Positions 5,095 to 45,549 are shown, numbered from the stretch's first letter. The stretch is 64,000 nucleotides of DNA from Caulobacteraceae bacterium (GCA_046349475.1 JAXMCG010000021.1:40-64039), one strand, 5' to 3'. Notes: generated by a model not told the origin, from the sequence alone. Made by a program: numbers and translations.

Positions 5095-5149
5095 CGCGGC
5101 CCAAGGGGTTCTCTTGCTCGGCCATCCCGCCGCAAGAGGAGCACTCCGG

Positions 5150-5572: not shown

Positions 5573-5623
5573 GCAAGGCGCGAGCCTTCCCTGAAGGTGC
5601 GCCTCCCAGAAAGGGAGGCCGCC

Positions 5624-6256: not shown

Positions 6257-7560
6257 AGACCGCTCCACATACGCAAGAGCCCGAGGGCCGCCCCGGCCGC
6301 CACCAGCCAGAGCGCGCCGACCTTGAAGCGCCAGGCCGCCACGAACGCCGCCAGGGCCGCGCCCCCGGCAATCCAATCCACGTTAGCCGCCGGCAGGAAG
6401 GCCTCGCGGGCAATCAGCAGAGCGAGGCTGGCGATTACCCCCACCACGGCCGCTGTAACCGCCGAAAGCGCGGCGTGGGCGCGGCGGTCGCCGCTCAGCC
6501 GTTCTATCAGCGGCGCCCCGGCCAGCACGAAGTAGAAGCAAGGCAGGAAGGTCACCCAGGTCGTGATCGCGGCCGCCACGCTCGCCGCCGCCAGCGGGCC
6601 TAGCCCGCCTGCCGCACCGGACTCGGAGGCGTTCCAGCCGGCGAAGAAACCCACATACTGCGTCACCAGAATGAGCGGCCCCGGCGTGGTCTCGGCGAGA
6701 GCCAGGCCATGCACCATCTCGGCGCGGGACAGCCAGCCATATTGATCCACTGCCGCCTGGGCCACGAACGGGAGCACGGCATAGGCCCCGCCGAAGGTCA
6801 CGAAGGCCGCTTGGGTGAAAAAGCTCGCCACATCGGCGAAGGGCGCCGTCCCCGCCAACCAGATCGCCAAGCCTACGGGCGCCGCCCATAGCGCCACGAA
6901 CACGCAGCTCAGCAGCAAGAACCGCTTGAACGCCACCGCCCAGTTCACCGGCGCCGCCGGCGCAAGGGGCGAATCCCCGTGCCCTGCCGGGGCGATCTTC
7001 AGACCTATCCGGTCGGCGACGAGGCCAAACACGAGCGCAGCCCCGATGATTAAAGGAAACGGCAGTTTGAATACGACCAGCGCCAGGAAAGCCGCGCCAG
7101 CCAGCACCCAGGCGGTCACCGACTTCAACGTCCGCGTCCCGATCCGCCAGGCTGCGTGGGCGATCAGGGCGGTCACGATCGGCAGCATCCCCTGGAACAT
7201 CGCCTTCAGCGGCGGCCAGTCCCCGTGCGCCGCCGCCAGCCAGGCCAGGCCATAGAGCACCCCCGCGCCAGGCAGGACGAACAGCACGCCCGCCGCCAGC
7301 GCCCCTTTCAGGCCGTGCAGCTTCAATCCCAGATAGGTCGCCAATTGCTGCGCCTCGGGACCGGGCAGCAGCATGCAGAAGTTCAAGGCCGTCAGGAATG
7401 TGCGCTCGCTGACCCAGCGCCGGCGGTCCACTAGCTCCTCGTGCAGGATCGCGATCTGCCCCGCCGGCCCGCCAAACGATATCAGCCCGACCTTCAGCCA
7501 GAGCCGCACGGCCTCCGTGAAGGTTGGCTTGACAGTCTGAGAGGGCGCCGCATCCGACAT
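6253..7560 (-). CDS. chrA: chromate efflux transporter ChrA
   Basis: 435 aa and polytopic, with a duplicated CHR domain (LISFGGPAGQIAILHEELVDRRRW...LLPGPEAQQLA and a second FGGAYAVLP...TTPGPL). Confidence 0.9.
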   Translation of the reverse strand: MSDAAPSQTVKPTFTEAVRLWLKVGLISFGGPAGQIAILHEELVDRRRWVSERTFLTALNFCMLLPGPEAQQLATYLGLKLHGLKGALAAGVLFVLPGAGVLYGLAWLAAAHGDWPPLKAMFQGMLPIVTALIAHAAWRIGTRTLKSVTAWVLAGAAFLALVVFKLPFPLIIGAALVFGLVADRIGLKIAPAGHGDSPLAPAAPVNWAVAFKRFLLLSCVFVALWAAPVGLAIWLAGTAPFADVASFFTQAAFVTFGGAYAVLPFVAQAAVDQYGWLSRAEMVHGLALAETTPGPLILVTQYVGFFAGWNASESGAAGGLGPLAAASVAAAITTWVTFLPCFYFVLAGAPLIERLSGDRRAHAALSAVTAAVVGVIASLALLIAREAFLPAANVDWIAGGAALAAFVAAWRFKVGALWLVAAGAALGLLRMWSGL

Positions 7561-7801
7561 TTCCGCCTACCGGTAGCCTTGGTCCGCGACAGGGGGAAGT
7601 CACTCGCCCTACGGCTCCGCCCGGTCGAACGGCGCAGCCCACGGCCGCCTCCCCGCTTCGCATCGGCATTGTCAGCGGCGCCCTCATCGCGCCGGCCGCC
7701 GCTATGAAGCCTACCGCCACCCAACCTGACTGCCCTCACGTCATACTGGCGAGCCCCCTCATCCCCCTGGCAAACTGCCTCAAAAGAGGGAGCCAAAACC
7801 A

Positions 7802-9496
7802 ATGCCTACCCCCCAGGAAGCCCGCGCCGCCTTGCTCGCCTCCGGCCGCTTCGCGCTGGCCGACGAGCCATTCCATGACGGGTCGATCAAAGTCTACGCC
7901 AACGCCCCCGCCTCGATGCGCGAGATCCTGCTCGACAGCCGCCGCTACGGCGAGCGCGTGTTCACCGTCTACGAGGATGAGACCACAACTTTCGACCAGT
8001 TCTTCCAGCGCACCGCCGCCCTCGCCCGCCGGATGACCGAGGCCGGCATCGTCAAGGGCGACCGCGTCGCCGTCGGCATGCGCAACTATCCGGAATGGCC
8101 CGTCGCCTTCTTCGCCTGCCAGGCCATCGGCGCCATCGTTGTCGCCCTCAATGCCTGGTGGACCACCGCCGAGCTGGAATTCGCGCTGGAGGACTCCGAG
8201 CCCGCCGGCCTGCTGATCGACGGCGAACGCCTTGAGCGTCTGGCTCCCCTCCTCCAGGCCCATCCCCCGAAATTCCTCGCTGTTGCCCGGCGCGGCGGGG
8301 CGGGCCCTGGCGGCTTCGACTTCGACGAAGCCATGTCGGGCGAAGGCCCCCTGCCCGACGTCGAGGTTGGTCCGCACGACCTCTCCACCATCCTCTACAC
8401 CTCCGGCACCACGGGCCGGCCGAAGGGCGCAATGCACGCCCACCGCAATCACATCACCAACCTGATGAACGGTCAGCTGGGCGGCGCCGTCATGCGCGCC
8501 GTGGCCGGTGTCCCCAACCCCGACCAACCCCCGCCCGTCGAAGGCTCCGCCCAGGCCGGCGCCTTGCAGACCTTCCCCTTCTTCCACATTGCCGGGGTCT
8601 CCGGGATCTACTCAGCCGTCGCCAACGGCAGCAAGCTCGCCCTGATGTACAAATGGGTCCCCGCCGAAGGGGTCCGCCTTGTCGAAACCCACAAGCTCTC
8701 CAGCGCCGCCGGCGTGCCCATGGTGATGCGCCAGCTGCTCGAACACGCCCGCGAGAGCGGCGCGGACCTCTCGTCCCTGGCTGGCGTCGCAGCGGGCGGG
8801 GCCCCTGTCCCGCCGGACCTCATCAAACGCATCGGCGATCAGTTCCAGTCCCGCGCCTCGGCCGGCAACGGCTACGGCCTGACCGAGACCACCAGCGCCG
8901 TGATCTCCAACGGCGGGCCGGAATATTTCGCGCATCCAGACAGCATCGGCCGCCCGGGCACGACGGCTCAGATCCGGATTGTCGGCGAGGACGGGCAGGA
9001 TGTCGCCCAGGGCGACATCGGCGAGCTGTGGGTGCGCGGGCCGAACGTCATTCCCGGCTATTGGCGCAATCCCGAAGCCACGGAAGCCGCCTTCGGCGGC
9101 GGCTGGTTCCGCACCGGCGACCTTGGCTACGTCGATGAAGCCGGCCTGCACTACGTTGTCGACAGGGCCAAGGATGTCATCCTGCGCGGTGGCGAGAATG
9201 TCTACTCCGCCGAGGTGGAGGCCGCGATCCTGCCCCTGCCCGGCGTGAAGGACGTGGCGGTGCTGGGCCTGCCGCACGACATCTATGGCGAAGAGGTGGC
9301 CGCGGTCATCCAAATGCGCCCCGAGGCCATCACGCCAGGCGCCGAGGCGCGGATCGCCCAGGCCCTGGAGGCCGATATGGCCCGCTTCAAGATTCCTACT
9401 CGCATCATCCTGACCGCGGACGAACTGTTGCGGACCGGCACCGGCAAACTGCTCAAGCGTGAACTCAAGAGCCTGTACTTCCCGGTGGCGAGGTAG
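7802..9496 (+). CDS. AMP-dependent acyl-CoA synthetase/ligase
   Basis: AMP-binding motif LYTSGTTGRPKGAM, plus GYGLTET, WFRTGDLGY and a C-terminal GKLLKREL. Confidence 0.9.
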   Translation: MPTPQEARAALLASGRFALADEPFHDGSIKVYANAPASMREILLDSRRYGERVFTVYEDETTTFDQFFQRTAALARRMTEAGIVKGDRVAVGMRNYPEWPVAFFACQAIGAIVVALNAWWTTAELEFALEDSEPAGLLIDGERLERLAPLLQAHPPKFLAVARRGGAGPGGFDFDEAMSGEGPLPDVEVGPHDLSTILYTSGTTGRPKGAMHAHRNHITNLMNGQLGGAVMRAVAGVPNPDQPPPVEGSAQAGALQTFPFFHIAGVSGIYSAVANGSKLALMYKWVPAEGVRLVETHKLSSAAGVPMVMRQLLEHARESGADLSSLAGVAAGGAPVPPDLIKRIGDQFQSRASAGNGYGLTETTSAVISNGGPEYFAHPDSIGRPGTTAQIRIVGEDGQDVAQGDIGELWVRGPNVIPGYWRNPEATEAAFGGGWFRTGDLGYVDEAGLHYVVDRAKDVILRGGENVYSAEVEAAILPLPGVKDVAVLGLPHDIYGEEVAAVIQMRPEAITPGAEARIAQALEADMARFKIPTRIILTADELLRTGTGKLLKRELKSLYFPVAR

Positions 9497-12225: not shown

Positions 12226-12255
12226 GCGGGGGCGGAGCGCAAACTCAAGGGAATT

Positions 12256-12678
12256 CTATGCGCCCATGTGCCCTGGGCGGTGCGGCGTACGCCAGGGCTG
12301 CGAGACATCCGCCAGGGCGGCGTCGACACATTCCACGGTCACGGCGATGTCCCCGCCACCGGAGAAAGCCAGCGTGATCACCCCGCCCGGCGCCTCACCC
12401 GGCTCGAAGCTGACGGTCAGCAGGGAGATCACGGCATCCTTCAGGTCGCGGCGGATATTGCGCGCCTTGACGGCCATCACCCCGCCCAGTTGCAGCCCGC
12501 AACGCACGCGACCGCCCTCGGCCTCCCAGCGGTAGCGGTTGAACGCCACGGTCAGCATCCGGCCCCTGCCATCCACCTGGATATCTCCGACCTTGGCCAC
12601 GGCGTCCTGCAGCGCCGCCGCGATCACGGCGAGATCGTCGGCGTCCTGCGCCAGCAGCCGGAGTGGCGCCTCGGCCAC
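12256..12678 (-). CDS. DUF2948-family protein
   Basis: 140 aa with LRLLAQDADDLAVIAAALQDAV...NRYRWE. It holds the conserved position between hisD and murA in alphaproteobacteria. Confidence 0.7.
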   Translation of the reverse strand: MAEAPLRLLAQDADDLAVIAAALQDAVAKVGDIQVDGRGRMLTVAFNRYRWEAEGGRVRCGLQLGGVMAVKARNIRRDLKDAVISLLTVSFEPGEAPGGVITLAFSGGGDIAVTVECVDAALADVSQPWRTPHRPGHMGA

Positions 12679-12681
12679 GGC

Positions 12682-13977
<1,296 letters not shown>

Positions 13978-32104: not shown

Positions 32105-33550
32105 TCAATTCGGCGCCATCGACCCCCGTGGCGCGCCCATCGGCGGCGGCTGGATGGTTCCGGCCTTGATCAGCCCGAACGCCCGCCCGAACAGAGCCGC
32201 ATCGTCCGCCGCCGCACTATAGGCCGGCCAAGAGAAGCCCTCGCAGCTGAGCGCCCGCGTCGCATTGGTCGATTTGAAGAACGCCGTCCAGCAGAGGTTC
32301 AGCCGGCGCGATACGTCCTTGTCGTCGGCGTTCACCCGCGGATCGCCCGCCGACGAAAAGCCCCAGCTGTCGAACACATAGACAATCTCCGCCGAATGCG
32401 GGGCCCCGTTCGGCTGGGCCGGCTTCCGCCACTCCGGCACATAGGCGAAGTTGTAGAGATAGGACGGGGCCGATCCGGCCGCCGCCAACCCTGCGAGCGT
32501 CCGTGCCGCGCCCGCCCCCGGCTCGCCGTTGTTGGAGCCGACCAGGGTCGGCACATCCGCCGCCGTCCCGGCCGCATAGGCGTCCTGCAGGGAGCTCGTG
32601 ACGATCTTGCCGTCGATCACGCCCCGGATGCCGGTCCGCGTCGCCGCATTGGCCACCAGGGCCTCGGCCGGGATCGCGCGCAGCTGGTCGGCCGTGGCAT
32701 TCGCGCCCGGCAGGCCGAGAGCCGTCGCCGCTTCCACGCCCTTGGCTTCACCGGCCGCCAGATCGATGCCGCCGCGCAGGTTCGAGCCGCTCTCGATCAC
32801 CGCCTTGGCGAAGAGCCCACTGGCCGCCGGCGAGGCCAGCAGCTGCGAGACCATCGATCCGCCCGCCGACTGGCCGCCCACCGTCACATTGTTCGCATCC
32901 GCGCCCAGGGCCCGCGCATTGCGCTTCACCCACTTCAGCACCTCGATGGCGTCCATCAGGGCGTAGTTGACCAGGGGCTCGCCGCCGTTGGCCGCCGTCA
33001 GGGCCGGGTGAGCAAAGGCGCCGAACGCGCCGAGCCGGTAGTTCACCGTCACCACGATCACGCCGTTGCGGGCAAAGGCCTCGCCATTGTAGCCGCCCAG
33101 GTGCCCGGCCCCGAGATAGGCCGCCCCGCCATGCAGCCACACAAACACCGGCGCATTGCGCGCATTCTTCGGCACGGTGACATTGATGTAGAGGCAGTCC
33201 TCCGAGGTCGCCCCGGAAACGCCGCCGCCATTGACGCCCGTCGCCGGCACGGGCTGCGGGCACGGCAGGGCGAAATGGGTCGCGTCCCGGTCCCCCGTCC
33301 AATGAGCAGGCTGCTGCGGCATCCGCCAGCGCAGCGGCCCCACGGGCGGCCTCGCATAGGGCACGCCCCTGAAGGTGTTCACCTGGCCATCGGAAAAGCC
33401 CACCAAGGTCCCGGCGTCGATCTTTAGCCTTACCGCCGTCGTCCCGGCGGGCGCACCGCCCGCCCCTTGGGCCGGTTCGGCCCGCGATTCCGTCATGGTC
33501 ATTAGCGCCCCCATCAGCGCCAAAGCGGCGCCCCAGATCCTGATGTTCAA
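32105..33550 (-). CDS. secreted carboxylesterase, type B family
   Basis: GxSxG nucleophile elbow VTVGGQSAGGSMV and oxyanion region VWLHGGAAYLG. Likely TTG start at 33550 after GGGAG, giving signal peptide (M)NIRIWGAALALMGALMTMTESRA. The ORF is open to 33655. Confidence 0.85.
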   Translation of the reverse strand: MNIRIWGAALALMGALMTMTESRAEPAQGAGGAPAGTTAVRLKIDAGTLVGFSDGQVNTFRGVPYARPPVGPLRWRMPQQPAHWTGDRDATHFALPCPQPVPATGVNGGGVSGATSEDCLYINVTVPKNARNAPVFVWLHGGAAYLGAGHLGGYNGEAFARNGVIVVTVNYRLGAFGAFAHPALTAANGGEPLVNYALMDAIEVLKWVKRNARALGADANNVTVGGQSAGGSMVSQLLASPAASGLFAKAVIESGSNLRGGIDLAAGEAKGVEAATALGLPGANATADQLRAIPAEALVANAATRTGIRGVIDGKIVTSSLQDAYAAGTAADVPTLVGSNNGEPGAGAARTLAGLAAAGSAPSYLYNFAYVPEWRKPAQPNGAPHSAEIVYVFDSWGFSSAGDPRVNADDKDVSRRLNLCWTAFFKSTNATRALSCEGFSWPAYSAAADDAALFGRAFGLIKAGTIQPPPMGAPRGSMAPN

Positions 33551-33682
33551 AGCCGTGCTCCCATGCGGGTGTCTCGGACCCGCTTGATCACAGCTTAGCG
33601 GATGCGCGCATTCATGGGCAAGCCTGACTACTAAATGGAAGATGCGAACAGACACATTTGCGCCCTTCGCACTTTCTCGTTG

Positions 33683-33742: not shown

Positions 33743-35056
33743 ATGAGCGACGGTGCGATCGATTTGAAGGCTGAAGCGCGCGCCCGCGTCTTCGCCGAGC
33801 CCATCGAAACTCTCAATGTGTCCCAGTCGCAGCTGTTCCAGGACGACGCGCATTGGCCCTACTTCGAGCGCCTGCGCGCCGAAGACCCGGTGCACTGGGT
33901 CCCGGCCAGCGACTTCGAGCCCCACTGGGACGTCACCCGCTATAACGACATCATGGAAGTCGACACCAATCACAAGGTGTTCTCCTCCGAGGGCGGCATC
34001 AGCCTTGGCCCGTCCGAAGAAATGATCGCCAAGATGGTCGCCTCCGGCGCCCAGATGACCGGCGGCCCGTTCGGCGGCCCTACCGGCGGCCCGACGATGT
34101 TCATCGCCATGGACCCGCCAAAGCATGACGAGCAGCGCAAGACCGTCAGCCCGGCCGTCTCGCCGCACAACCTGGCGATCCTTGAGCCCCTGATTCGTGA
34201 ACGCGCGGGCCAAATCCTCGACAGCCTGCCCATCGGCCAGCCCTTCGACTGGGTCGACAAGGTGTCCATGGAACTGACGGCGATGACGCTGGCCACCCTC
34301 TTCGGCATGCCGCAGGAGGATCGCCGCAAGCTGACGCGTTGGTCGGACATCGTCATGGCCCGTCCTGGCCAGGGCTTGATCGACACCTGGGAGCAGAAGC
34401 GCCAGGAAATGGGCGAATATGCCAGCTACTTCCTGAACCTCTGGCAGCAGCGCAAGGCCGCTGAGCCGGCGGGCGACCTGGTGTCCCTGTTGGCCCATGG
34501 CGAGGCCACGAAGGACATGAACCAGTTCGAATACCTGGGGAACATCATCCTTCTGACGATCGGCGGCAACGACACCACCCGCAACACGATCTCGGGGTCG
34601 GTCTACGCCCTCAACAAGTTCCCCGATCAGTACGCCAAGCTGCGCGCCAATCCGGACCTCATCCCCTCGATGGTTTCCGAAACCATCCGCTGGCAGACGC
34701 CGCTGGCGCATATGAAGCGTACGGCCACCGAGGACTATGAACTGGGTGGCAAGACCATCAAAAAGGGCGACGCCGTGGTCATGTGGTACGTCTCGGGCAA
34801 CCGCGACGACTCCAAGATCGAGCGGCCGAATGAGTACATCATCGACCGGGCCCGGCCGCGCGAGCACCTCTCCTTCGGCTTCGGCATCCACCGCTGCGTC
34901 GGCAACCGCGTCGCCGAACTGCAGTTGCGGATCATTTGGGAAGAAATCCTCAAGCGCTTCCCCGACATCCAGGTCCTGGAAGAACCCCAGCGAGTCTTCT
35001 CGACTTTCGTGAAGGGCTACGCCTCCATGCAGGTGATCATCCCCTCCAAGAACTAG
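33743..35056 (+). CDS. cytochrome P450, CYP153 (terminal alkane/alkyl hydroxylase) family
   Basis: MFIAMDPPKHDEQRKTVSP, LTRWSD, GGNDTTRN, IRWQTPLAHMKRTA and the heme loop HLSFGFGIHRCVGNRVAELQL. Very close to CYP153A sequences as I remember them. Confidence 0.93.
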   Translation: MSDGAIDLKAEARARVFAEPIETLNVSQSQLFQDDAHWPYFERLRAEDPVHWVPASDFEPHWDVTRYNDIMEVDTNHKVFSSEGGISLGPSEEMIAKMVASGAQMTGGPFGGPTGGPTMFIAMDPPKHDEQRKTVSPAVSPHNLAILEPLIRERAGQILDSLPIGQPFDWVDKVSMELTAMTLATLFGMPQEDRRKLTRWSDIVMARPGQGLIDTWEQKRQEMGEYASYFLNLWQQRKAAEPAGDLVSLLAHGEATKDMNQFEYLGNIILLTIGGNDTTRNTISGSVYALNKFPDQYAKLRANPDLIPSMVSETIRWQTPLAHMKRTATEDYELGGKTIKKGDAVVMWYVSGNRDDSKIERPNEYIIDRARPREHLSFGFGIHRCVGNRVAELQLRIIWEEILKRFPDIQVLEEPQRVFSTFVKGYASMQVIIPSKN

Positions 35057-35066
35057 ATCTCAGAGC

Positions 35067-35100
35067 GGGGACGTAGGCAGGCCTGCGTCCCCATTCTTTT
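35067..35100 (+). terminator. rho-independent terminator of the P450 gene
   Basis: GGGGACG-(loop)-CGTCCCC hairpin followed by ATTCTTTT, 11 nt after the stop. Confidence 0.7.
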
Positions 35101-35240
35101 GGGCGAGGGGTTCCCTTTTCGCGAAACCCTGCTAGCCTGTGCGCTCGCTCTCGGGCGAGGACACGCCGATCCCACCGTAAATACGGTCGAAATACGGTGT
35201 CAGCAGCTGGCAGCAGGGTGCGTTTCTAAAAACGACGCAT

Positions 35241-36398
35241 TCACGAAACCCGAGCCTCCAGCAGTCCTTCGTGCTGGGCGATCGTGTCCGGGTTCTCCGG
35301 GTCAAGCCGCTTGAACAGCGCCTCATTCCTGGACTTGTAAGCGTCCAGCTCAATGTCATGGCGGTCGACGGCCGCGAGCAGGGCGCGGCCTCCATCCTCG
35401 GCGTCGAAATCGCCGAAATAATAGCCGTGGCCCTTCAGAAAGCTGGAATTGTGGATCAGCGGGTAGCCGCCCCTCAGCACCTCATAATAAAGATAATTCA
35501 AGGCGTTCTCCCACTGGTGGGTCACCACGGCGTCGCAGTGGTTGGCCAGGAATTCCGCCGAGTTGAACCTCGGCTCCAGGGTCATGATCCCGGCCTGGAC
35601 CGATTTCAGGCAGAGGGTGAAACTCTTGAAGTGGGCGTTTTCCCGGTGAGGCCAGCCATTGGTGATATACATCGCCTTGAACGCGCCCGCCCGCGCCCGG
35701 TAGGCCGCTTCGCACACCAGCATGGGCAGGTGGCTGGTCTTCATCACGGTGATGTTCGGGTCCAGCGCCCCCACGCGCCAGGTCTTCGGTCCGGGCTTGT
35801 AGCCAAAGGTCGCCTTGGCCGCTGTCCTGTCGATGAAGAGCGGACTCCAAATCTGCGGCGCCTCCAACACGGGGCAGCGGTACAGGGTCTCGCACCAGCC
35901 CTTGTAGGTGTGGATGTGCTGCGGCGTCATCCAGATCTGGTCGAAGTAGTCGATGTCGAAATAGCGCTCGGCATCGGCGCGGGGCGGCTTGGCGATGATC
36001 GCCTCCATCGAGATCACCGCCCCGTTGCCGCCCTTATAGTTGATCATCCGGCACCCCCTGGCGCGCAGGGCCATGGCGGTCTCACGATCCAGGGCCGCGC
36101 CCAGGGAAATTACATAGTCCAGCTGGTCCAGCACCTTGGGCGTACGCAGGATGTCGGCAGCCTCGACTCCGAGGTCCGAGACATCCTCGACGGGCTCCCC
36201 ATCTCCATGATTGAGCAGGAACACGCGCGCGCAATTCGGTGAGGCTTTGAACAACCGGTAGAGAAAGACGACGTTCTGGCGCAGGCCGTTTTCATAAAGC
36301 CCCAAAGTGCCGTCGCCCTTGACGAAGATGGTGATCCCCACCGTGTAGCCACGTGGGGGCGCGCCGGGGCTTGGCGTTCTCCGTAGCGGCGCATTCAT
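35241..36398 (-). CDS. glycosyltransferase-like protein of unknown function, paralogue 1 (DUF2827-like?)
   Basis: 385 aa and paralogous to 36967..38076. Block DAVVTHQWENALNYLYYEVLRGGYPLIHNS resembles a GT-B C-terminal E-x8-E/G.PLI motif. ATGA overlap with the upstream gene. Confidence 0.7.
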   Translation of the reverse strand: MNAPLRRTPSPGAPPRGYTVGITIFVKGDGTLGLYENGLRQNVVFLYRLFKASPNCARVFLLNHGDGEPVEDVSDLGVEAADILRTPKVLDQLDYVISLGAALDRETAMALRARGCRMINYKGGNGAVISMEAIIAKPPRADAERYFDIDYFDQIWMTPQHIHTYKGWCETLYRCPVLEAPQIWSPLFIDRTAAKATFGYKPGPKTWRVGALDPNITVMKTSHLPMLVCEAAYRARAGAFKAMYITNGWPHRENAHFKSFTLCLKSVQAGIMTLEPRFNSAEFLANHCDAVVTHQWENALNYLYYEVLRGGYPLIHNSSFLKGHGYYFGDFDAEDGGRALLAAVDRHDIELDAYKSRNEALFKRLDPENPDTIAQHEGLLEARVS

Positions 36399-36970
36399 CG
36401 GAAGAGCTCCTTTTTGACCGAGATGCAGCCTGTTCCAGCCGGGGTCAGATAGAGCTGAAGTCCAGGATTGAGCTCGGAGATGCGCACATCGCGCATCAAG
36501 GTGCGCTCAGCCGCGAAGTTGGCGAATACCGTGGCCTTGAGGCGGTCGCACGGCGTTGGCCACCAGATGGTCTGCTGATACATGCCCGAGCAGTCCGGCG
36601 TGACCATCAGGCTGGAGAGCCGAGTGCGCCCGGAGGGATCACCGCTCTCAATGACAAACACCACCGGCCAGCGGTTGGCGTCCGGTCCAAGAGGTTGCGC
36701 CGTGAACTTGGCCGGCTGCCCCTCGATCAGGAAATCCGCCGCCCGCTGAACTGCGGGAGCGCAGGCGTTCATGCGCAGCTGGCGAAGCGTATTGGCGATG
36801 TCCTGCGAGGCAGTGGTGCTCATGCCGCCGGAGACACCGCCGGCGGGAGAGCCGGATCGCGTGGCCGGCGGCGACGGCGTATAGGCCGGCGGGCGGGGGG
36901 CCGGCCGGGGCTGGGCGAGGGCTGGGCTCGCCAGGCAAAGGGCGGCCGCGAGGGCGAGAATCCGTCTCAT
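36395..36970 (-). CDS. small secreted protein (signal peptide, Pro-rich linker, 4 Cys), unknown function
   Basis: MRRILALAAALCLASPALAQ signal. ATGA overlaps at both ends (36967-36970 and 36395-36398). Confidence 0.7.
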   Translation of the reverse strand: MRRILALAAALCLASPALAQPRPAPRPPAYTPSPPATRSGSPAGGVSGGMSTTASQDIANTLRQLRMNACAPAVQRAADFLIEGQPAKFTAQPLGPDANRWPVVFVIESGDPSGRTRLSSLMVTPDCSGMYQQTIWWPTPCDRLKATVFANFAAERTLMRDVRISELNPGLQLYLTPAGTGCISVKKELFR

Positions 36971-38076
36971 GCCGCCATCGCGCTGTCGAGCAGCGCGGCA
37001 TGCCGGCGCTGCACTTGGGGATTGTCGATATTGAAGCGCCAGAGGAGGTCGAACACCGCCTCCCTTTGGGCGTCGCGCCGGGCGGCATGGCCCTCCAGGG
37101 CGTCCTTCAGAACGGCCCCACCCTTCTGCGGATCGAAAGCCGGATAGTAATAGCCAACCTCCTCAAAGGCTTCGGAATTGTGGATCAGCGGCCAACCCAG
37201 ATAGAGGGCGTCCCAGTAGAGGTAGTTCAGCTCATTCTCCCACTGGTGGGTCACCACGGCGTCGATGTGCGTTCCAAGGACCTGGGCCAGCGGAAAGCGC
37301 CCCTCGGCGAACACCCGCTTCTGGCGGCCTAGATCCGTTGCCGCGCAGAACTCCTCGAAATGCGTCGTGCCGATCAGCTGCGAGGCGGAGAACAGCAGCA
37401 CCCGGTCGATCAGGCCCTCCCGCGCCCTGTGGGCCTCTTCGCAGACCAGGAGGGGCAGGTGGAAGGTCTTCAGGACATTGATGTTGGGATCGAAAACCCC
37501 GATCCGCCACGCTCCTTCCGGCGGCCTCCAGAAGGCGTTCACCTTCGACATCTGAGCCGATTGCGTCAGGCACATCGGGTGCCAGACATGGGGGGCCATT
37601 TCGACGTTGGGGCTGCGCGTCATGGCCGCGTAAGATCTGTTCATCCGCCAGTGTTGAGGGGTGATCCAGCAGGCGTCGCAGCCCACCTCGCTGATGTGCT
37701 CTCCATGGCGAACGTCGCTGGCGAGATCTTCGAAGTTCATGGCGAGGGTGTTGCCGGCCATGTAGGAAATCAGCTTTCCGCCGCGAGCGCGGAAGAGCCG
37801 CATCAGGTTCGCATCGGCCCGCACTCCCAGCTCGATGATCACATCGAGGGCTCCCGCCGCCTCGTTCACCTGCAGCGTTGGCAGCCCGAACAGATCCCCC
37901 AGGGGGTTCGGCTTGTCCGTGGCCGGGCAGTTGACGATCGCGGCCAACTCCACCTCCGGCAGGCGCTGCAACAACATCCCGAGATAGACAATGTTCTGGG
38001 CTATGCCGCTGGACCAGAGGGCGGCGAAGGCGTCCACGTCCGCCTGGGCGGTGATTCCGACTTTCAGCCGCTTCAT
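36967..38076 (-). CDS. glycosyltransferase-like protein of unknown function, paralogue 2 (DUF2827-like?)
   Basis: The ATG at 38076 (MKRLKVGITA...) follows GAAGGGGA and aligns with paralogue 1 (YTVGITIF...). Shared block DAVVTHQWENELNYLYWDALYLGWPLIHNS. The ORF is open to 38202. Confidence 0.7.
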   Translation of the reverse strand: MKRLKVGITAQADVDAFAALWSSGIAQNIVYLGMLLQRLPEVELAAIVNCPATDKPNPLGDLFGLPTLQVNEAAGALDVIIELGVRADANLMRLFRARGGKLISYMAGNTLAMNFEDLASDVRHGEHISEVGCDACWITPQHWRMNRSYAAMTRSPNVEMAPHVWHPMCLTQSAQMSKVNAFWRPPEGAWRIGVFDPNINVLKTFHLPLLVCEEAHRAREGLIDRVLLFSASQLIGTTHFEEFCAATDLGRQKRVFAEGRFPLAQVLGTHIDAVVTHQWENELNYLYWDALYLGWPLIHNSEAFEEVGYYYPAFDPQKGGAVLKDALEGHAARRDAQREAVFDLLWRFNIDNPQVQRRHAALLDSAMAA

Positions 38077-38095
38077 GGCATCCCCTTCTCGCGTC

Positions 38096-38129
38096 GAAAC
38101 GGCGCCCGCTCCTTTCGGAGCAGGCGCCG
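38096..38129 (-). terminator. hairpin/attenuator between the adhesin gene and the downstream genes
   Basis: On the minus strand CGGCGCCUGCUCC-GAAA-GGAGCGGGCGCCG forms a 13-bp stem with one G.U and a GNRA loop. Only UUU follows, so it is probably a partial terminator. Confidence 0.45.
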
Positions 38130-38158
38130 CCCGGACCGTCTCTAGACGGGTGTTGGGC

Positions 38159-39937
38159 CTACCACTTGAACCCGAGGCCGGCAGACCCGCCCCATCCGTC
38201 ATTCGAGGCGCCGACGCCGATCCCGAAGACCATGCCCTCGGTCCAGCGCGCCTCGTACCTGACGGAGAAAGCGCTCTGGCTTTCGAAAGTTCCCACCCCG
38301 ACGGCGATCCCCTGTTCTCCAGGCGCCAGCGGCAGAGAGACGGAGCTCATCGCCAGGCCGAGCGCGACCCCGCCATAGGCCTTCTCGACCTGGGCGACAT
38401 TGGCGCCGTCGGTGGGATCAATGCCCTCGGCGACATTGACCAGACGCCGCTCGGACCCCGGCGCCCCGAAGGAGACCACGTTCGGCGCATTGGCCGCCGA
38501 CCCGGCGCCGATCGCCACCGAGTTGGAGCCACTGGCGCCGACCGAGGCATTGTAGCCGATAGCCGTGGCGTTCACCGCGGAGGCGCTGATCGTCGAGCCG
38601 GCGCCCACCGCCGTGCCGCCGTCCGCCCCGACATGGGCATTGGCGCCGACCGCGGTATCGTTCGGGCCGGCCGCGAACGCGTTGGTGCCGACCGCCACGG
38701 ATCCGGCGCCTTGGGCCCGGGCGTTGGCCCCGACCGCCGTCGCGCCCGCCACAGCCGATGCACCAAGCCCGACGTTCAGACCATTGGTCGGCTGGGGGAT
38801 CGCCCCAATCGACGCGAACCGCGCGTCCACCGAGGTGGAGAGGGTCGAAAGGCTCGAGTTGGTGCTGGAGAGTGAGGAAGAGACGTTGGTCAGGCTGGTC
38901 GATGTATTGGCCAGATTGGAATTCGTCGTCGACAAGGATGAGGAGACATTGGCGACGTTCGAGTTCGTGCTCGAGAGGCTCGTCGACACATTGGCCAGGT
39001 TGGAGTTGGTCGTCGACAGCGACGTCGAGACGTTGCCAAGGCTGGCGTTGGTGTTGCCGAGGTTCGAATTGGTCGTCGAGAGGCTCGATGACAGGTTCAC
39101 GTAGTTCGAGTTCGTCGTCGACAAGGACGTCGAGAACCCGGTCAGGCTGGTGGAGATGTTGGCCTGGGTCGAGTTCGTCGTGGACAGCGACGACGACAGG
39201 TTCACGACGTTGGAATTGGTCGAGGACAGGCTCGAGGATAGCCCGGAAATCCCGCTCGAGAGCGAGGTCGAGACGTTGGCCAAGTTGGAGTTGGTCGTCG
39301 ACAGACTCGTCGAGACATTGGTCAGGTTCGAATTGGTCGTCGAAATCGAGGACGAAACGTCTGACAGGCCCGTCGACAGAGACGTCGAGACGCTCGCCAG
39401 GTTCGAGTTCGTCGTCGAGATCGAGGACGACACGTCTGACAGACCGGTCGACAGGGACGTCGAGACATTGGTCAGGTTGGAATTCGTCGTCGAAAGCGAT
39501 GTCGAAACGCCGGTCAGGCTCGTGGAGATATTGTCCTGAGTGGACAGACCGGTCGACAGCGAGGTCGAGACATTCACCAAGCTGCCGGAGATGTTGACCT
39601 GTGAGGTCGACACGTTGGTCAGGGTGGAGTCGGTCGACGACAGCGACGTTGAGATGTTCGCCTGCGTCGAGAGTCCCGTCGAAAGGCTGGTCGAGATATT
39701 GGCCTGATTGGAGTTGGTCGAGGACAGGCTCGAGGAGACGTTCGTCAGATTGGAATTGGTCGTCGAGAGCGAGGTTGAGACACCCGTCAGGCTCGTGGAG
39801 ACGTTACCCAGAAGCCAAGCTGGTCGATTGGCCGGCCAACGAAGTCGACTGACCTGCCAGGCTCGTCGAGTTGTTCGCGGTGCTGGTAGAGACATTGTCG
39901 AGGCTGGAATTTGTGGACGACAACGAGGTCGAGACAC
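38159..39937 (-). CDS. TAA C-terminal fragment (repeat stalk, YadA-like head/neck, beta-barrel anchor)
   Basis: Genuine adhesin sequence begins about 39808 (GNVSTSLTGVS...). Head repeats NSVAIGAGSAA, neck VVSFG..ERRLVNVAEGIDPTDGANVAQ, and anchor GVALGLAMSS...GIAVGVGTF..QSAFSV...GLGFKW. The first 43 or so codons of the track ORF are out-of-frame read-through. Confidence 0.85.
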   Translation of the reverse strand: MSRPRCRPQIPASTMSLPAPRTTRRAWQVSRLRWPANRPAWLLGNVSTSLTGVSTSLSTTNSNLTNVSSSLSSTNSNQANISTSLSTGLSTQANISTSLSSTDSTLTNVSTSQVNISGSLVNVSTSLSTGLSTQDNISTSLTGVSTSLSTTNSNLTNVSTSLSTGLSDVSSSISTTNSNLASVSTSLSTGLSDVSSSISTTNSNLTNVSTSLSTTNSNLANVSTSLSSGISGLSSSLSSTNSNVVNLSSSLSTTNSTQANISTSLTGFSTSLSTTNSNYVNLSSSLSTTNSNLGNTNASLGNVSTSLSTTNSNLANVSTSLSSTNSNVANVSSSLSTTNSNLANTSTSLTNVSSSLSSTNSSLSTLSTSVDARFASIGAIPQPTNGLNVGLGASAVAGATAVGANARAQGAGSVAVGTNAFAAGPNDTAVGANAHVGADGGTAVGAGSTISASAVNATAIGYNASVGASGSNSVAIGAGSAANAPNVVSFGAPGSERRLVNVAEGIDPTDGANVAQVEKAYGGVALGLAMSSVSLPLAPGEQGIAVGVGTFESQSAFSVRYEARWTEGMVFGIGVGASNDGWGGSAGLGFKW

Positions 39938-40175
39938 CCGTCAGGCTCGTCGAGACGTTCGTCTGCGTTGAGACGGTCGATGACAGCGACGTCGAGATAT
40001 TGGCTTGGGTGGAATTGGTGGTCGATAGGCTACTCGAAAGGTTGGTGACGTTCGAATTAGTCGTCGATAGCGAGGTCGAGACACCCGTCAGGCTTGTGGA
40101 GACGTTACCGAGGCTGGTCGACTGGCCGGCCAAAGAAGTCGATTGACCTGCCAGGCTCGTCGAGACGTTGGTGAA
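38835..40175 (-). repeat. in-frame tandem coding repeats (21/42-nt period) of the adhesin stalk, with a ~180-nt segmental duplication
   Basis: 14-residue units such as TNSNLANVSTSLST repeat dozens of times. 39690-39870 and 39990-40165 are about 80-90% identical by eye. Confidence 0.85.
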
Positions 40176-40349
40176 GTTGGAGTTGATCGCGGTGTTGTCG
40201 GTCGTGTCGGCCTGATCCGTAACTGTCACAATCTGGGCTTGAGCAACCGCGGGCGCGAGGGCCGTCATCGCTAAGCCCAGGGATGTCACGGAGACGCCAA
40301 GCAGCAATGCCGCGCGCACGGGTGCGCGGCCACCATTTAATCTATTCAT
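39804..40349 (-). CDS. TAA N-terminal fragment (signal peptide plus S/T/N repeats)
   Basis: MNRLNGGRAPVRAALLLGVSVTSLGLAMTALAPAVAQA followed by NVSTSLAGQSTSL... repeats. Ends at a TAA created by the frameshift. Confidence 0.8.
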   Translation of the reverse strand: MNRLNGGRAPVRAALLLGVSVTSLGLAMTALAPAVAQAQIVTVTDQADTTDNTAINSNFTNVSTSLAGQSTSLAGQSTSLGNVSTSLTGVSTSLSTTNSNVTNLSSSLSTTNSTQANISTSLSSTVSTQTNVSTSLTGVSTSLSSTNSSLDNVSTSTANNSTSLAGQSTSLAGQSTSLASG

Positions 40350-40696
40350 TATTGAGCGTCCCTTTGAGAAGTCGCGATTTGTCCGGTGATTGTGTCGGAC
40401 AGCCGACTTCTGAGCCGGCGCTTACCCTGAACAACCAAGTGCACAACCAGCACTTAGCCATCAAAGTTCATGGCGGTCCGCCGAATTTTGGCGAAAACCT
40501 GAATTATTATACAGACTTAACCTTATGGACGCGTCCGTAATTCTACCCAATTACAGAACAAGCAGGAGCACACGGCCGCCTTTCCAGCAAGCCTTCTAGC
40601 TAAACCACAGCGCTAGAATCATCGACCACAGGCTGTGGCGCGCAGGTCACATTCAAGTAGAGCCGAAATGGCGCAACGGCGCCGGAATGTGGGCGG

Positions 40697-41527
40697 TCAG
40701 GCCGCCCGTTCCACGCTGCGAAGGACCGCTTCCAGGAAAATCGGGAAGAGTTTGGGCGGCATGTCATGCCCCATCCCCTCGATGATCCTCAGCTCGGCGC
40801 CCGGCACATTGGCCGCCGTGTCTCTGCCCCCCGCCACGGGCACCAGGGGGTCATCCGCCCCGTGCAGCACCAGGGTCGGAACCTTCAGCGCCCTGAGACC
40901 CGGCCGGCGGTCGCCTGTCGCTCCAATCGCCTGCATCTGCCGCTGTACCCCCGTGGGATTAAAAGCCCGGCGGTATTCACTCTCCGCCCGCGCCCTTAGC
41001 TCCCCTTCTGCCCAGGGATAGGCCGGGCTGCCGATGGTGAGGGCGTTGGAGACGCCATGGGCGATGAACGCCTCCCAATCAGTCTCGGGATTGGGCGCGG
41101 CGTTGGTGATTACGCCGATTGCCGGGGGCGGCGGCAAATCCGGATTGCCGGTGTTCGACATGATGCTGGTCATGGAGAGCACCCGGTCCGGATGCTCGAT
41201 CGCCACCTGTTGCACGATCATCCCACCCATCGAGACACCGACGAGGTGGGCCTTGGGGGCGCCGGCCGCGTCCAGCACCATCACCACGTCGCCGGCCATC
41301 TCGGAAAGGGTGTAGGCGTCGCCCGGCTTGAACCAGGTGGACTTGCCGGTGTCGCGGTTGTCCATGCGCACGGCGCGCAGCCCCTTGGCGACCAGCATTT
41401 CGCAGAACGGCGCTGGCCAGCGCGTCATCTGCGAGCCAAGGCCATTGACCAACATCACTGTCGGAGCGCCGGCCTCGCCAAAGACTTCGTATTCGATCTC
41501 TACACCGCGTCCGCTGGCCCTGGGCAT
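40697..41527 (-). CDS. alpha/beta-fold hydrolase
   Basis: HLVGVSMGGMIV nucleophile elbow and C-terminal GMGHDMP. The ATG at 41527 follows GAGGGGAG. Confidence 0.85.
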   Translation of the reverse strand: MPRASGRGVEIEYEVFGEAGAPTVMLVNGLGSQMTRWPAPFCEMLVAKGLRAVRMDNRDTGKSTWFKPGDAYTLSEMAGDVVMVLDAAGAPKAHLVGVSMGGMIVQQVAIEHPDRVLSMTSIMSNTGNPDLPPPPAIGVITNAAPNPETDWEAFIAHGVSNALTIGSPAYPWAEGELRARAESEYRRAFNPTGVQRQMQAIGATGDRRPGLRALKVPTLVLHGADDPLVPVAGGRDTAANVPGAELRIIEGMGHDMPPKLFPIFLEAVLRSVERAA

Positions 41528-43590: not shown

Positions 43591-44056
43591 CGCTCTCCGC
43601 CGCCGGCGCCTCATGCGTCGGAAGGGTTTCTTTGACACCATAGCGTTGCCGCCAGCGATTGATCTCGGCCGTCAGGTCATGCGGGGCCAGGGTCCAGCAG
43701 GAATGCACGCCCCAGATCTTTCCGTCCTTCATGGCCAACTTGACCACGTTGAACCAGTTCGCTTTGACCACAAGCGCCCGGTCGATCGTCTCCCAGGGCC
43801 AGGCCGGGCCGCCCCGTCCATGCTCGATGCGCACGCCTTGTTCGGAGATGATCATCTCGCTCGGGCGGAAGAGCACAAGGATGAAATAAAGGGCATGGTA
43901 GCCGAAGAAGAGCGCCATCGCGCCCCCGGTCCCGATGGCGACATTGTTGTCGAAACTTAAGGCCAGCCAGAAGCCCACGGCGCATAGGGGCGCGGCGCAG
44001 GCGAGATATCCCGCCGCCTTGCCGCGCGACTGGCGGTCCCGGAACGGCGCCTCCAC
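43577..44056 (-). CDS. hypothetical membrane protein (2 TM plus PH-like C-terminal region)
   Basis: 159 aa. The GTG start overlaps the upstream stop by 1 nt. Coding-like GC3. Confidence 0.55.
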   Translation of the reverse strand: MEAPFRDRQSRGKAAGYLACAAPLCAVGFWLALSFDNNVAIGTGGAMALFFGYHALYFILVLFRPSEMIISEQGVRIEHGRGGPAWPWETIDRALVVKANWFNVVKLAMKDGKIWGVHSCWTLAPHDLTAEINRWRQRYGVKETLPTHEAPAAESVSAG

Positions 44057-45549
44057 TAGGCCTCCATCGCCGCACGGCCTGCGGCGTCATGATCGTCCAG
44101 CACCCGGCATTCCTTATCGAACACCATGGTCGGCAGGCTCTCCGCCGTCACCGGAGCCCAGCCCGGATTGCCGGTCCGGGCAAAGGCGATCCAGGCATCC
44201 GCCATGGTCGCCGCCAGGGCCCGGGCTTCATCGCCCCCGCCCGTGTGGTTCAGGCACCGGTCGATGTTGTCGAGGCAAAAGGCGAGGTCGGAGCAGTGGA
44301 AGGCGCGCGGCCGGCCATCCAGCACAGGGGTCTTCCAGGCGAACTGATAAAGATAGGCCGGCGCCCCGCCCGCCGCCGCCTTCAGCCGGGCCTGGGCGAC
44401 TGGCTGCAGCCGGCCCATCGAAGCCGAATTGATCACCGCGGCGATCTCCACCGGCAGGGCCTCCGGATAGACGGCCCTCCAGGCCGCGATCACCTGCGGA
44501 TCGCGCCGCACCTGGTCCCAGCCGATGGCCTCCATCTTCGGCACGCCCATGCTGGGCGAGCTCTCATGCAGGGTCCCGCCGACCAGCAGGGGGATGTCAT
44601 GTGAGGTCGCGGTCGGCGCCGGATGGTAGGGGTGGCGCGCCACCTCGACCCCATCGACGAAAGGCTGCCAGACCATGCCTTCCCAGACCGCCCCGTTCGG
44701 CCGCACCGCCTTGCGCAGCGCCGCGGAAGCCTGAGCTCCGGCTTCCACGAGGGCCCGGGCGGACAGCGCTCGTAGCCCCGCCTCATCACAGCCCGCCGCG
44801 TCCAGCAGGGCCGCGCGCACTTCGTCGGCCCGCTCGGGCGAGGCAATCCGCAGCTGCGAGCCCGACTGCACGATCATCTTGTGGAAGAGGCCCGTGGCCG
44901 CCGGCATGGCCGTCAGGGTGTTGATCTTCGCCCCACCGCCGGACTGGCCGAAGACCGTGACATTGCCGGCGTCGCCGCCAAACGCCGCCGCGTTCTCCTT
45001 CACCCATTCCAGAGCCAGCACGATGTCCAGCATCCCCGGATTGGCGGCCCCGCCCTCCAGCTTCAGATAGCCGAACGGGCCCAGCCGGTGATTGACGCTG
45101 ATCACCACCACATCGCCGCGCCGGGCGAGGTTTTCGCCGTCATAGGCGGGCAGCTCCTGGCTCGACCCGGCCTCGTAGCCGCCGCCATGGATGAAGAACA
45201 TCACCGGCCGTTTGCCCTGCCCGCCCGGCGTCCAGACGTTCAGGCGCAGGCAGTCCTCACCGGGAAAGCCATCATCCCAGTCGAACAGGAACGCCACCTC
45301 GTCGTGCTTCCACCCCGCCCGCTCGATCTGCGGGCACACCGGGCCATAGGCCAGGGCCGATCGCTCGCCCGTCCAGGCCTTGGCCGCCTCCGGGGCCAAG
45401 AAGCGCTCGGCGGCGCCATAGGGGATGCCCTTGAAGGTCAGGATTCCCGCCCGCGAAACGCCGCGCACCTTGCCCAGTGAGGTCTCGATCACCGCAGCGG
45501 CGGGCGTGGTCAACCCGCCAGCGGCGCTCACCCGCGATCCATCGGCCAT
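44056..45549 (-). CDS. carboxylesterase, type B family (cytoplasmic)
   Basis: FKGIPYGA, FIHGGGYEAGS and VTVFGQSGGGAKI. No signal peptide. Confidence 0.9.
   Translation of the reverse strand: MADGSRVSAAGGLTTPAAAVIETSLGKVRGVSRAGILTFKGIPYGAAERFLAPEAAKAWTGERSALAYGPVCPQIERAGWKHDEVAFLFDWDDGFPGEDCLRLNVWTPGGQGKRPVMFFIHGGGYEAGSSQELPAYDGENLARRGDVVVISVNHRLGPFGYLKLEGGAANPGMLDIVLALEWVKENAAAFGGDAGNVTVFGQSGGGAKINTLTAMPAATGLFHKMIVQSGSQLRIASPERADEVRAALLDAAGCDEAGLRALSARALVEAGAQASAALRKAVRPNGAVWEGMVWQPFVDGVEVARHPYHPAPTATSHDIPLLVGGTLHESSPSMGVPKMEAIGWDQVRRDPQVIAAWRAVYPEALPVEIAAVINSASMGRLQPVAQARLKAAAGGAPAYLYQFAWKTPVLDGRPRAFHCSDLAFCLDNIDRCLNHTGGGDEARALAATMADAWIAFARTGNPGWAPVTAESLPTMVFDKECRVLDDHDAAGRAAMEA

Follow-up and report, generated by a model that had tools for sequence, protein, structure and literature searches.

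A candidate adhesin-glycosylation cassette in Caulobacteraceae: a serine-rich trimeric autotransporter encoded with two DUF2827 paralogues and a small four-cysteine secreted protein

A 64,000-nucleotide stretch of DNA from a Caulobacteraceae bacterium (GCA_046349475.1, JAXMCG010000021.1:40-64039; hereafter the window) carries, on the minus strand, a cassette of four consecutive genes encoding a serine-, threonine- and asparagine-rich trimeric autotransporter adhesin, two paralogous proteins of the domain of unknown function family DUF2827 (P2 and P1) and, between these, a small secreted protein. The best-supported reading of this cassette is that of a dedicated adhesin-glycosylation module, in which the DUF2827 enzymes glycosylate the neighboring adhesin. 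On account of the predicted fold, the conserved residues and the conserved genomic neighborhood, we give this reading a probability of roughly 0.55. The cassette and its immediate border consist of the following features:

35067-35092, unstranded: 11-bp GC-rich stem-loop where the P1 and P450 genes converge (terminator scan, sequence)
35241-36398, minus strand: P1, a DUF2827 paralogue of 385 aa without a signal peptide, predicted GT-B enzyme (open reading frame (ORF) list, Pfam PF10933, AlphaFold2/Foldseek)
36395-36970, minus strand: small secreted protein of 191 aa, with a signal peptide, a Pro/Ala/Ser linker and a ~135-aa four-cysteine domain (ORF list, alignment, AlphaFold2)
36967-38076, minus strand: P2, a DUF2827 paralogue of 369 aa without a signal peptide, predicted GT-B enzyme (PF10933; orthologue-supported start)
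about 38099-38130, minus strand: GC-rich hairpin with a GAAA loop (folding energy against shuffles)
38159-39809, minus strand: 3' part of the adhesin, with the remaining Ser/Thr/Asn heptad stalk, YadA-head-type repeats, neck and YadA-type beta-barrel anchor, ending in GLGFKW
39804-39816, minus strand: frame break in the adhesin, at the site gcttctgggtaacg (sequence and repair analysis)
39804-40349, minus strand: 5' part of the adhesin, with a Sec signal peptide (cleavage about AVA/QA) and the first ~140 residues of Ser/Thr/Asn heptad repeats

An earlier note on this DNA had placed P1, the 191-aa protein and P2 at these same coordinates and on this strand, in agreement with the ORF list, and the ATGA stop/start overlaps that it described are present at both the P2/small protein and the small protein/P1 junctions. 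The start of P2 at MKRLKVGIT matches the starts of its orthologues.

The paralogy of P1 and P2 is borne out by an identity of 33%, and the DUF2827-like family, which the note had named, proved to be the right one: both proteins match PF10933 at full length, over profile positions 1-361 of 362, P1 with an E of 3e-100 (336 bits) and P2 with an E of 5e-88 (295.8 bits), the gathering score of the family being 25 bits. No Pfam family other than DUF2827 matches P1 at E <= 0.1, neither the paralogues nor the small protein have a model in NCBIfam, and searches of the sequences in the PDB with P1 and with a 31-sequence profile returned chance matches only (designed proteins, an integrase and others). 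At the level of structure, the AlphaFold2 model of P1 built from the 31-sequence alignment has a predicted local distance difference test (pLDDT) score of 85.7 and a predicted template modeling score (pTM) of 0.85, and displays two Rossmann-like halves of alternating strands and helices together with long C-terminal helices. A Foldseek comparison of this model with the PDB recovered 133 matches at E <= 1e-3, the best 50 of which are GT-B-fold enzymes with a probability of 1.0 and template modeling (TM) scores of about 0.5. The top matches are to XcOGT, the Xanthomonas homologue of the O-GlcNAc transferase OGT (2xgm, 2xgo, 2jlb; 15-16% identity), after which come MshA, SenB, sucrose-phosphate synthase, BshA, TarM, glycogen synthases and WaaG; the matches listed also include human OGT, MurG and, at rank 40, GtfA (4pqg), an enzyme acting on serine-rich-repeat adhesins. 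Hence, a GT-B glycosyltransferase-type fold, which the note had suspected, is supported in silico for P1, as far as a predicted model of that protein can speak.

Inspection of an alignment of 138 full-length DUF2827 sequences from the fetched loci (48 in the P1 clade, 47 in the P2 clade and 43 in a Burkholderia-type group) revealed 19 conserved residues, namely Q41, N42, D94, E132, D153, W156, W184, N215, K220, R234, R277, H294, W296, N301, H316, N317, G325, Y326 and H347, whose retention is 85-100% in either paralogue clade and 77-100% among the Burkholderia-type sequences. The polar invariants of the family as a whole (Q41, D94, E132, D153, N215, K220, R277, H294, N301, H316 and N317) show 91-100% retention in P1-clade and P2-clade sequences alike. 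The P1 model places the conserved residues where strands end and helices begin in its two halves, as would be expected for a GT-B cleft, with K220, R277, H294, H316 and N317, invariant in all clades, at the strand ends of the C-terminal half. As the family invariants are kept in P1 as well as in P2, both paralogues look catalytically competent from their sequences. The clades differ beside K220, where P1 has T217 and S222 and P2 has N and F, and positions 217 and 222 are candidate specificity positions. The E-x8-E motif that had been read in the C-terminal block shared by P1 and P2 stands in part: E306 is always acidic (E or D), but E297 is a glutamate in only 58-85% of the sequences of each clade, and the strict invariants of this block are H294, N301, H316 and N317.

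The second line of evidence is the genomic linkage of DUF2827 to adhesins, for which 68 loci were assembled, 67 from a scan of one genome per species and one from a metagenome contig. The six-frame ORFs of these loci were searched with hidden Markov models (HMMs) of DUF2827, of the small protein and of the C-terminal part of the adhesin, and then with a rebuilt HMM of the anchor. As the loci are anchored on DUF2827, the resulting counts give the share of DUF2827 loci that have an adhesin, and not the share of adhesins that have DUF2827. An ORF with a YadA anchor is adjacent in 54 of the 68 loci and, when only the 35 loci from Alpha- and Betaproteobacteria with at least 3 kb on either side of the DUF2827 block are counted, in 31, so that the co-occurrence for which the note had looked to phylogenomics is indeed found. 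The adjoining adhesins contain 19-47% Ser+Thr, and the DUF2827 genes usually occur in twos (two copies in 53 loci, three in nine, four in two and one in four).

The order adhesin, P2-like, small protein, P1-like is shared by about 30 alphaproteobacterial loci, from Caulobacteraceae, Brevundimonas-related metagenome-assembled genomes (MAGs), Sphingomonadaceae, Polymorphobacter, Allosphingosinicella and Hyphomonadaceae, with a sub-variant (L043, L044, L047, L064) in which the small-protein gene lies downstream on the opposite strand. Many bacteria of soil and water thus carry the set of four genes; candidate culturable carriers are Brevundimonas sp. TWP2-3-4b2 (L064), Caulobacteraceae bacterium PMMR1 (L042) and Novosphingobium ovatum FSY-8 (L046). 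In betaproteobacterial MAGs, the adhesin gene is followed by a P1-like and a P2-like gene, a gene for a 387-aa protein with a signal peptide and one for a distant homologue of the small protein; loci in classical Burkholderia, Paraburkholderia, Cupriavidus and Trinickia have an adhesin and two to four DUF2827 genes without the small protein. None of the genes flanking the cassette in the window recurs beside it in other loci, and this difference in flanking genes between loci indicates that the cassette is a conserved, mobile unit. The gene of the 387-aa protein, which in L029 spans 12252-13412 and separates the second DUF2827 gene from that of the small-protein homologue, is absent from the alphaproteobacterial cassette; its product looks like an outer-membrane protein on account of its signal peptide and C-terminal FEARANW. 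In two of the loci from Burkholderiales MAGs (L029, 6350-9991; L033, 7338-9935), the adhesin continues past the YadA-type anchor with a Pro/Ser/Thr/Ala-rich tail of 35-60 residues, constituting a C-terminal (periplasmic) extension. Such extensions have been described as largely absent from Proteobacteria (10.64898/2026.01.22.700529).

The adhesin of the window, called a trimeric autotransporter by the note, has the corresponding elements, namely a Sec signal peptide, YadA_head repeats (36.6 bits in Pfam) and a YadA_anchor (27.2 bits), the two Pfam scores lying over the cut-off. It was also correctly described as about two-thirds Ser/Thr/Asn in its stalk, with about 40 N-x-S/T sequons: once the frame is repaired, the 485-aa stalk consists of 31.5% S, 19% T and 13.2% N (64% together), and 40 sequons are counted in the protein. 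The strongest hydrophobic periodicity of the repaired stalk is 3.5 residues, with Leu and Val/Ile at an alternating 3/4 spacing, and the DNA encoding the adhesin has tandem repeats with periods of 42, 75 and 105 nt. The matches of the stalk to coiled-coil models of Pfam and NCBIfam (DUF1664, EzrA, SMC, crescentin) were rejected as homology, being instead attributable to heptad periodicity and low complexity; the DUF1664 match, over the stalk at 38159-39937, reaches 37.4 bits against a cut-off of 34.6. Additionally, the Ser/Thr repeat DNA contains long antisense open frames, in the window at 38565-39597 on the plus strand (e.g., 38758-39597, 279 aa), and on the L001 contig the gene caller took such an ORF (5355-7433, minus strand) in place of the adhesin (5062-8070, plus strand). 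These antisense ORFs are an annotation trap that could hide such adhesins from surveys.

The note had treated the adhesin as one uninterrupted gene from 40349 to 38159, which does not hold, since this span of 2191 nt is not a multiple of three and contains two ORFs in different frames. The 5' ORF (39804-40349) encodes 181 aa, comprising the signal peptide and repeats, and ends with a TAA stop at 39804-39806; the 3' ORF, which ends at 38159, has no export signal of its own. The signal peptide, head and anchor of a type Vc autotransporter are thus all present, but the signal peptide and the anchor lie in different frames with a stop between them. Deleting one base in the GGG run at 39808-39810, or a +1 shift, joins the two parts into a protein of 729 aa. 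The break site is 7 nt longer than the matching part of its sister repeat at about 40120, which also shifts the heptad register by two residues. A programmed +1 frameshift at GGG-UAA-C was considered and rejected, as the orthologues are unbroken, no Shine-Dalgarno-like stimulator lies 5' of the site and the 7-nt insertion breaks the heptad register.

The frame break points to either a recent pseudogene or an assembly error. We hold the odds to be about even that this copy is decaying, with the adhesin a pseudogene and the locus non-functional, or that the break is an artefact of assembly in a repetitive region of a MAG. The 7 extra nt with an in-frame TAA, the second adhesin ORF without a signal peptide, the origin of the source assembly as a MAG and the failure to find the product of either adhesin ORF in any other assembly by look-up are all consistent with this. 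A look-up of P2 in other assemblies, undertaken to judge the frameshift, likewise found none on record, and the other contigs of the same strain are all <3 kb. Genes identical to those of P1 and the small protein occur in the sequencing runs DRR438530 and DRR438534. Conversely, the other three genes of the cassette are intact and their products retain every invariant residue, and the repeat copies around the break are ~85-90% identical by eye, on account of which a simple repeat collapse is not obvious. The orthologous adhesins of the other loci are single ORFs, none of the orthologous loci being broken, and decay or artefact would be the state of one copy and not the nature of the cassette.

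Several observations weigh against a role of the cassette in adhesin glycosylation. In the window itself, the adhesin is frameshifted, neither of its ORF products was found in another assembly, and a hairpin sits between the adhesin gene and the genes of the putative enzymes. On the side of the enzymes, Pfam and PDB sequence searches found no sequence-level link of P1 or P2 to a CAZy-type family, the TM-scores of the fold matches lie near 0.5, and UDP-GlcNAc 2-epimerases, which also have the GT-B fold, occur among the Foldseek matches listed. TM-scores of this size are usual for two-domain GT-B proteins that differ in domain angle. As regards the linkage, four informative DUF2827 loci lack an adhesin within 10 kb; two of these (L003 and L037) are solo P1-like genes in proteobacterial MAGs and two (L049 and L057) are Paraburkholderia loci with three DUF2827 genes each. 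Further, one distantly related small protein (P0257) is encoded immediately downstream of exbD in L071, a 2-kb contig (L071 and L072 are Logan contigs of about 2 kb). Finally, a literature search that yielded just two papers turned up no experimental work on DUF2827.

Apart from the state of this copy, an alternative is that the DUF2827 enzymes build or modify a lipid-linked or surface glycan, which would be transferred en bloc by an O-oligosaccharyltransferase or ligase, or would be a polysaccharide cooperating with the adhesin. Many of the GT-B fold matches (WaaG, MurG, MshA, BshA, TarM) use lipid or small-molecule acceptors, EmaA-type adhesins are glycosylated via the O-antigen pathway, and the four loci without a nearby adhesin would be in keeping with such a function. 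It is nevertheless unlikely. Neither the cassette nor the window flanks contain a gene for an initiating phosphoglycosyltransferase, flippase, polymerase or oligosaccharyltransferase, and sugar-nucleotide genes are likewise absent from near the cassette in these flanks. The cassette moves as a unit between unrelated neighborhoods, and its sole constant partner is a Ser/Thr-rich adhesin.

Very unlikely, too, is the possibility that the DUF2827 proteins are cytoplasmic N-glycosyltransferases similar to HMW1C/NGT, which would place hexoses on the Asn of the ~40 sequons. The best fold matches of P1 are GT41 enzymes (XcOGT and human OGT), a family that also includes HMW1C/NGT. The stalk of the window adhesin has a periodic N-[VI]-S motif, and the adhesins of the betaproteobacterial modules share a GNVSTSL repeat. 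HMW1C-like enzymes are also known to modify trimeric autotransporters (PMC4550697). However, the emphasis that the note had laid on the sequons is not sustained by the orthologous adhesins, in which they are not a conserved feature. In the window, 40 sequons are observed where 30 are expected from the Asn and Ser/Thr content; the corresponding observed and expected numbers are 12/12 in L001, 7/15 in L008, 8/8 in L009 and 1/13 in L042 (P1 identity to that of the window 54-71%), and 15/37 in L056 and 17/47 in L067, two distant Burkholderia-type loci with a P1 identity of about 36%. The sequon numbers thus follow composition, ranging from 1 to 71 among orthologous adhesins, and in the window and in L001, L008, L042 and L067 they are near, at or under expectation, the close orthologues among these loci having P1 and P2 with about 65-70% identity. 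Further, Caulobacteraceae orthologues have G-V-S-T-S-L where the window has N-V-S-T-S-L, i.e., a change of Asn to Gly, and P1 and P2 have neither a Pfam GT41 match nor a tetratricopeptide repeat (TPR) or all-alpha domain. The Ser/Thr-rich heptads, on the other hand, persist in all orthologous adhesins (VSTSL, SLSTG, SSLST, DTSLT). Since the sequons are neither conserved nor enriched and the Ser/Thr-rich heptads are conserved, O-linkage is more likely than N-linkage for the stalk, to the extent that sequence comparison can tell. If all these enzymes have one acceptor in common, it would be Ser/Thr, though the Asn residues of the window protein might also be used.

Another idea is that the DUF2827 proteins are GT-B-like non-transferases in a module serving adhesin export, for example cytoplasmic holdases, factors that target the low-complexity stalk, or sugar epimerases. 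It could appeal to the epimerases among the fold matches, to the lack of any sequence similarity found to characterized transferases and to the precedent of GtfB of the serine-rich-repeat adhesin system, a non-catalytic substrate-binding GT-B protein. It is highly improbable, as the active-site-type polar set K220, R277, H294, H316, N317, D94 and E132 does not vary between the clades, is more in keeping with catalysis than with chaperoning and, unlike in a GtfB-type partner, is kept by both paralogues.

Returning to adhesin glycosylation as the preferred reading, the parts of the cassette could work together as follows. The adhesin would be a trimeric autotransporter with a long heptad stalk, in which Leu and Val/Ile form the core and Ser, Thr and Asn occupy nearly every other position. 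P2 and P1, which appear to be ancient paralogues within DUF2827, would be cytoplasmic GT-B-fold enzymes, both of them probably active glycosyltransferases using common nucleotide sugars. They would O-glycosylate the Ser/Thr residues of the unfolded stalk in the cytoplasm, ahead of its export by Sec, and might act either sequentially, with one adding the first sugar and the other extending it, or on different types of repeat. The small protein, probably disulfide-bonded in the periplasm, could act on the adhesin itself, in its passage, folding or anchoring, and not in sugar chemistry.

The hairpin that the note had described after the adhesin gene was located at about 38099-38130, 28 nt past the adhesin stop and 22 nt ahead of the P2 start. 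The 96-nt region around it has a folding energy of -53 kcal/mol (z = -5.2 against shuffles). The hairpin is strong, but its 3' tail is GUUU only and the consensus terminator scan makes no call there; we read it as a terminator/attenuator or an mRNA-stabilizing element. In most alphaproteobacterial loci, the 50-110 nt that separate the adhesin stop from the first of the DUF2827 genes contain a strong GC-rich hairpin, followed by a full U-tract in L007, L011, L034, L036, L038, L040, L041, L043, L044, L047 and L064, and this post-adhesin hairpin is part of the architecture of the cassette. As just 22 nt separate the hairpin from the P2 start, expression of the downstream genes is most simply explained by read-through. 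The hairpin would probably terminate or stabilize most transcripts, with a fraction reading through into the three tightly coupled genes, an arrangement that could yield much adhesin and little enzyme. Alternatively, a promoter may lie within the 3' end of the adhesin gene; a promoter scan of 35000-40700 found no sigma-70-like site.

At the other end of the cassette, the stem-loop at 35067-35092, which has a T-tract on the plus strand, likely marks the end of both the P1 and the P450 transcripts. Beyond it and on the other side of the adhesin, two paralogous carboxylesterase-family genes lie at a distance on either side of the cassette (32105-33655 and 44056-45549, both on the minus strand), among genes for the P450, an acyl-CoA dehydrogenase, a CoA-transferase and an enoyl-CoA hydratase. 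This is a neighborhood of lipid or xenobiotic catabolism with no relation to the cassette; an alpha/beta hydrolase and a beta-lactamase-family protein are also encoded in the flanks. Over 34-42 kb, the GC content drops slightly (62-65% as against 67-69%), and an Rfam scan of the whole window found one tRNA only.

The small protein deserves separate consideration. It has a Sec signal peptide, with no lipobox cysteine conserved across its homologues, and four invariant cysteines (C70, C127, C141 and C182) in its ~135-aa domain, whose C-terminus is conserved as G-C-x-S-[VI]-K-K-E-L-F. A word-indexed search gave 93 close homologues without Pfam domains of their own, and an exhaustive profile search gave 386 cluster representatives at E <= 1e-3, those listed being 58-291 aa and mostly about 170-240 aa in length; Pfam matched neither the small protein nor 10 of its distant relatives. 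Its AlphaFold model (pLDDT 84) has two helices and eight strands, and a Foldseek search of this model against the PDB gave no match at E <= 1e-3, the best being designed beta-barrels and mucin domains with a TM-score of about 0.2. The distant homologue in the betaproteobacterial modules (profile E about 1e-8) has the same four cysteines.

A metagenome scan anchored on the small protein yielded 49 loci. Close relatives occur among DUF2827 genes with an adhesin upstream, and a distant member lies between DUF2827 fragments in L073. By comparison, relatives with 27-34% identity (in the range L109-L123) stand directly beside genes for YadA-anchor or adhesin-like proteins with no DUF2827 nearby; such DUF2827-free loci include L110, L111/L112, L114, L115, L117, L121, L122 and L123, some with tandem duplicates. 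Another distant member, in L074, directly follows an ORF with a trimeric autotransporter anchor. L109-L123 and L074 come from metagenome and Logan contigs. This occurrence beside adhesin genes in the absence of DUF2827 indicates that the small-protein family follows the adhesin and not the enzymes. It fits a periplasmic partner of the adhesin, and the family may be an unrecognized one of trimeric autotransporter partners. The suggestion that this protein is a helper of the kind represented by SadB and TpgA survives in one respect, in that the family tracks adhesin genes, and fails in another, in that it is no relative of SadB or TpgA, neither Pfam, NCBIfam nor the folds in the PDB relating it to a known family. 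Like SadB and TpgA, it is a small envelope protein encoded beside a trimeric autotransporter gene; unlike them, it has no lipobox, BamE or OmpA domain, and it has four invariant cysteines.

The note had taken the combination of such an enzyme pair with a serine-rich adhesin to be undescribed. This has been overtaken by a preprint of January 2026 (10.64898/2026.01.22.700529; Dorison et al., bioRxiv), which reported the link between DUF2827 and these adhesins as a bioinformatic note. That study clustered the neighbors of trimeric autotransporter genes in 1383 genomes and found DUF2827 beside them, for the most part in Burkholderia, with further cases in Veillonellales and Pasteurellales; it called DUF2827 cytoplasmic, proposed a glycosyltransferase role citing structural homology, and judged it unlikely that further helper proteins would be found. 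The two accounts agree in PF10933, in its adjacency to trimeric autotransporter genes and in the proposal of a cytoplasmic glycosyltransferase. The text of the preprint, however, contains no Caulobacterales, Sphingomonadales, serine-rich stalks or small secreted protein, and the window cassette differs in being alphaproteobacterial, with a fixed order of P2, small protein and P1 and a conserved hairpin after the adhesin. The window cassette is hence a new-lineage, fuller variant of a candidate system already noted there. What is added here is the alphaproteobacterial four-gene cassette with its mobility and conserved hairpin and the putative active site in both paralogues. The argument for O- over N-linkage is also new, as is the small-protein family that tracks the adhesins, perhaps the most original of these leads.

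Among the characterized systems, that of GtfA/GtfB with the serine-rich-repeat adhesins of Gram-positive bacteria resembles the cassette in that the genes of two paralogous GT-B proteins adjoin that of a Ser/Thr-rich repeat adhesin, GtfA itself being among the fold matches of P1, and in that glycosylation takes place in the cytoplasm ahead of export, as proposed here. The analogy drawn by the note between the two pairs breaks down at the putative active site, as the retention of the polar invariants in both paralogue clades, including all the family invariants, indicates that P1 and P2 are not a pair of one catalytic and one non-catalytic protein. Additionally, P1 and P2 have no Pfam match to Glycos_transf_1 or DUF1975, the window adhesin has the normal Sec route and a type Vc anchor with no accessory Sec genes in the flanks, and its stalk is heptad-periodic as opposed to consisting of disordered dipeptide repeats.

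The GT41 enzymes of the HMW1C/NGT type, which act on HMW1, Knh and EmaA, are likewise cytoplasmic GT-B enzymes dedicated to adhesins, trimeric autotransporters included (PMC4550697), and GT41 structures are the best fold matches of P1. Yet P1 is not GT41 by sequence, either in Pfam or against the OGT/NGT sequences of the PDB even with a profile; it has 385 aa and no N-terminal TPR or all-alpha domain; the substrates here do not conserve sequons; and there are two paralogues as against one enzyme. In the Aah/TibC systems, the gene of a cytoplasmic O-glycosyltransferase lies beside that of an autotransporter (AIDA-I/TibA) which is modified on Ser/Thr before Sec export. These bacterial autotransporter heptosyltransferases (BAHT) differ in that P1 and P2 have no Glyco_transf_9 match, in that their substrates are of type Va and not type Vc, and in that their genes lie upstream of the adhesin gene.

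If the DUF2827 enzymes indeed glycosylate the adhesins beside them, DUF2827 would be a new family of protein glycosyltransferases. The module would then account for the serine-rich trimeric autotransporters of the Burkholderia cepacia complex, which were described in 2011 (PMC3417366), including BCAM2418, whose suggested O-glycosylation has not been assigned to an enzyme (PMC7142374). Dedicated adhesin glycosylation would also be common in environmental Caulobacterales and Sphingomonadales and not confined to pathogens, brought about by a compact cassette of four genes that needs no special sugar pathways. Independently of the enzymes, the link between the small protein and the adhesins bears on the claim of the preprint against further helpers of trimeric autotransporters (10.64898/2026.01.22.700529). 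As a tentative and somewhat doubtful extension, DUF2827 might be a new family of cytoplasmic protein O-glycosyltransferases working in pairs to coat the Ser/Thr-rich heptad stalks of a widespread class of trimeric autotransporters, with the four-cysteine protein as a third periplasmic partner family that acts independently of glycosylation. Such a family would make DUF2827 the Gram-negative counterpart of the serine-rich-repeat glycoprotein systems.

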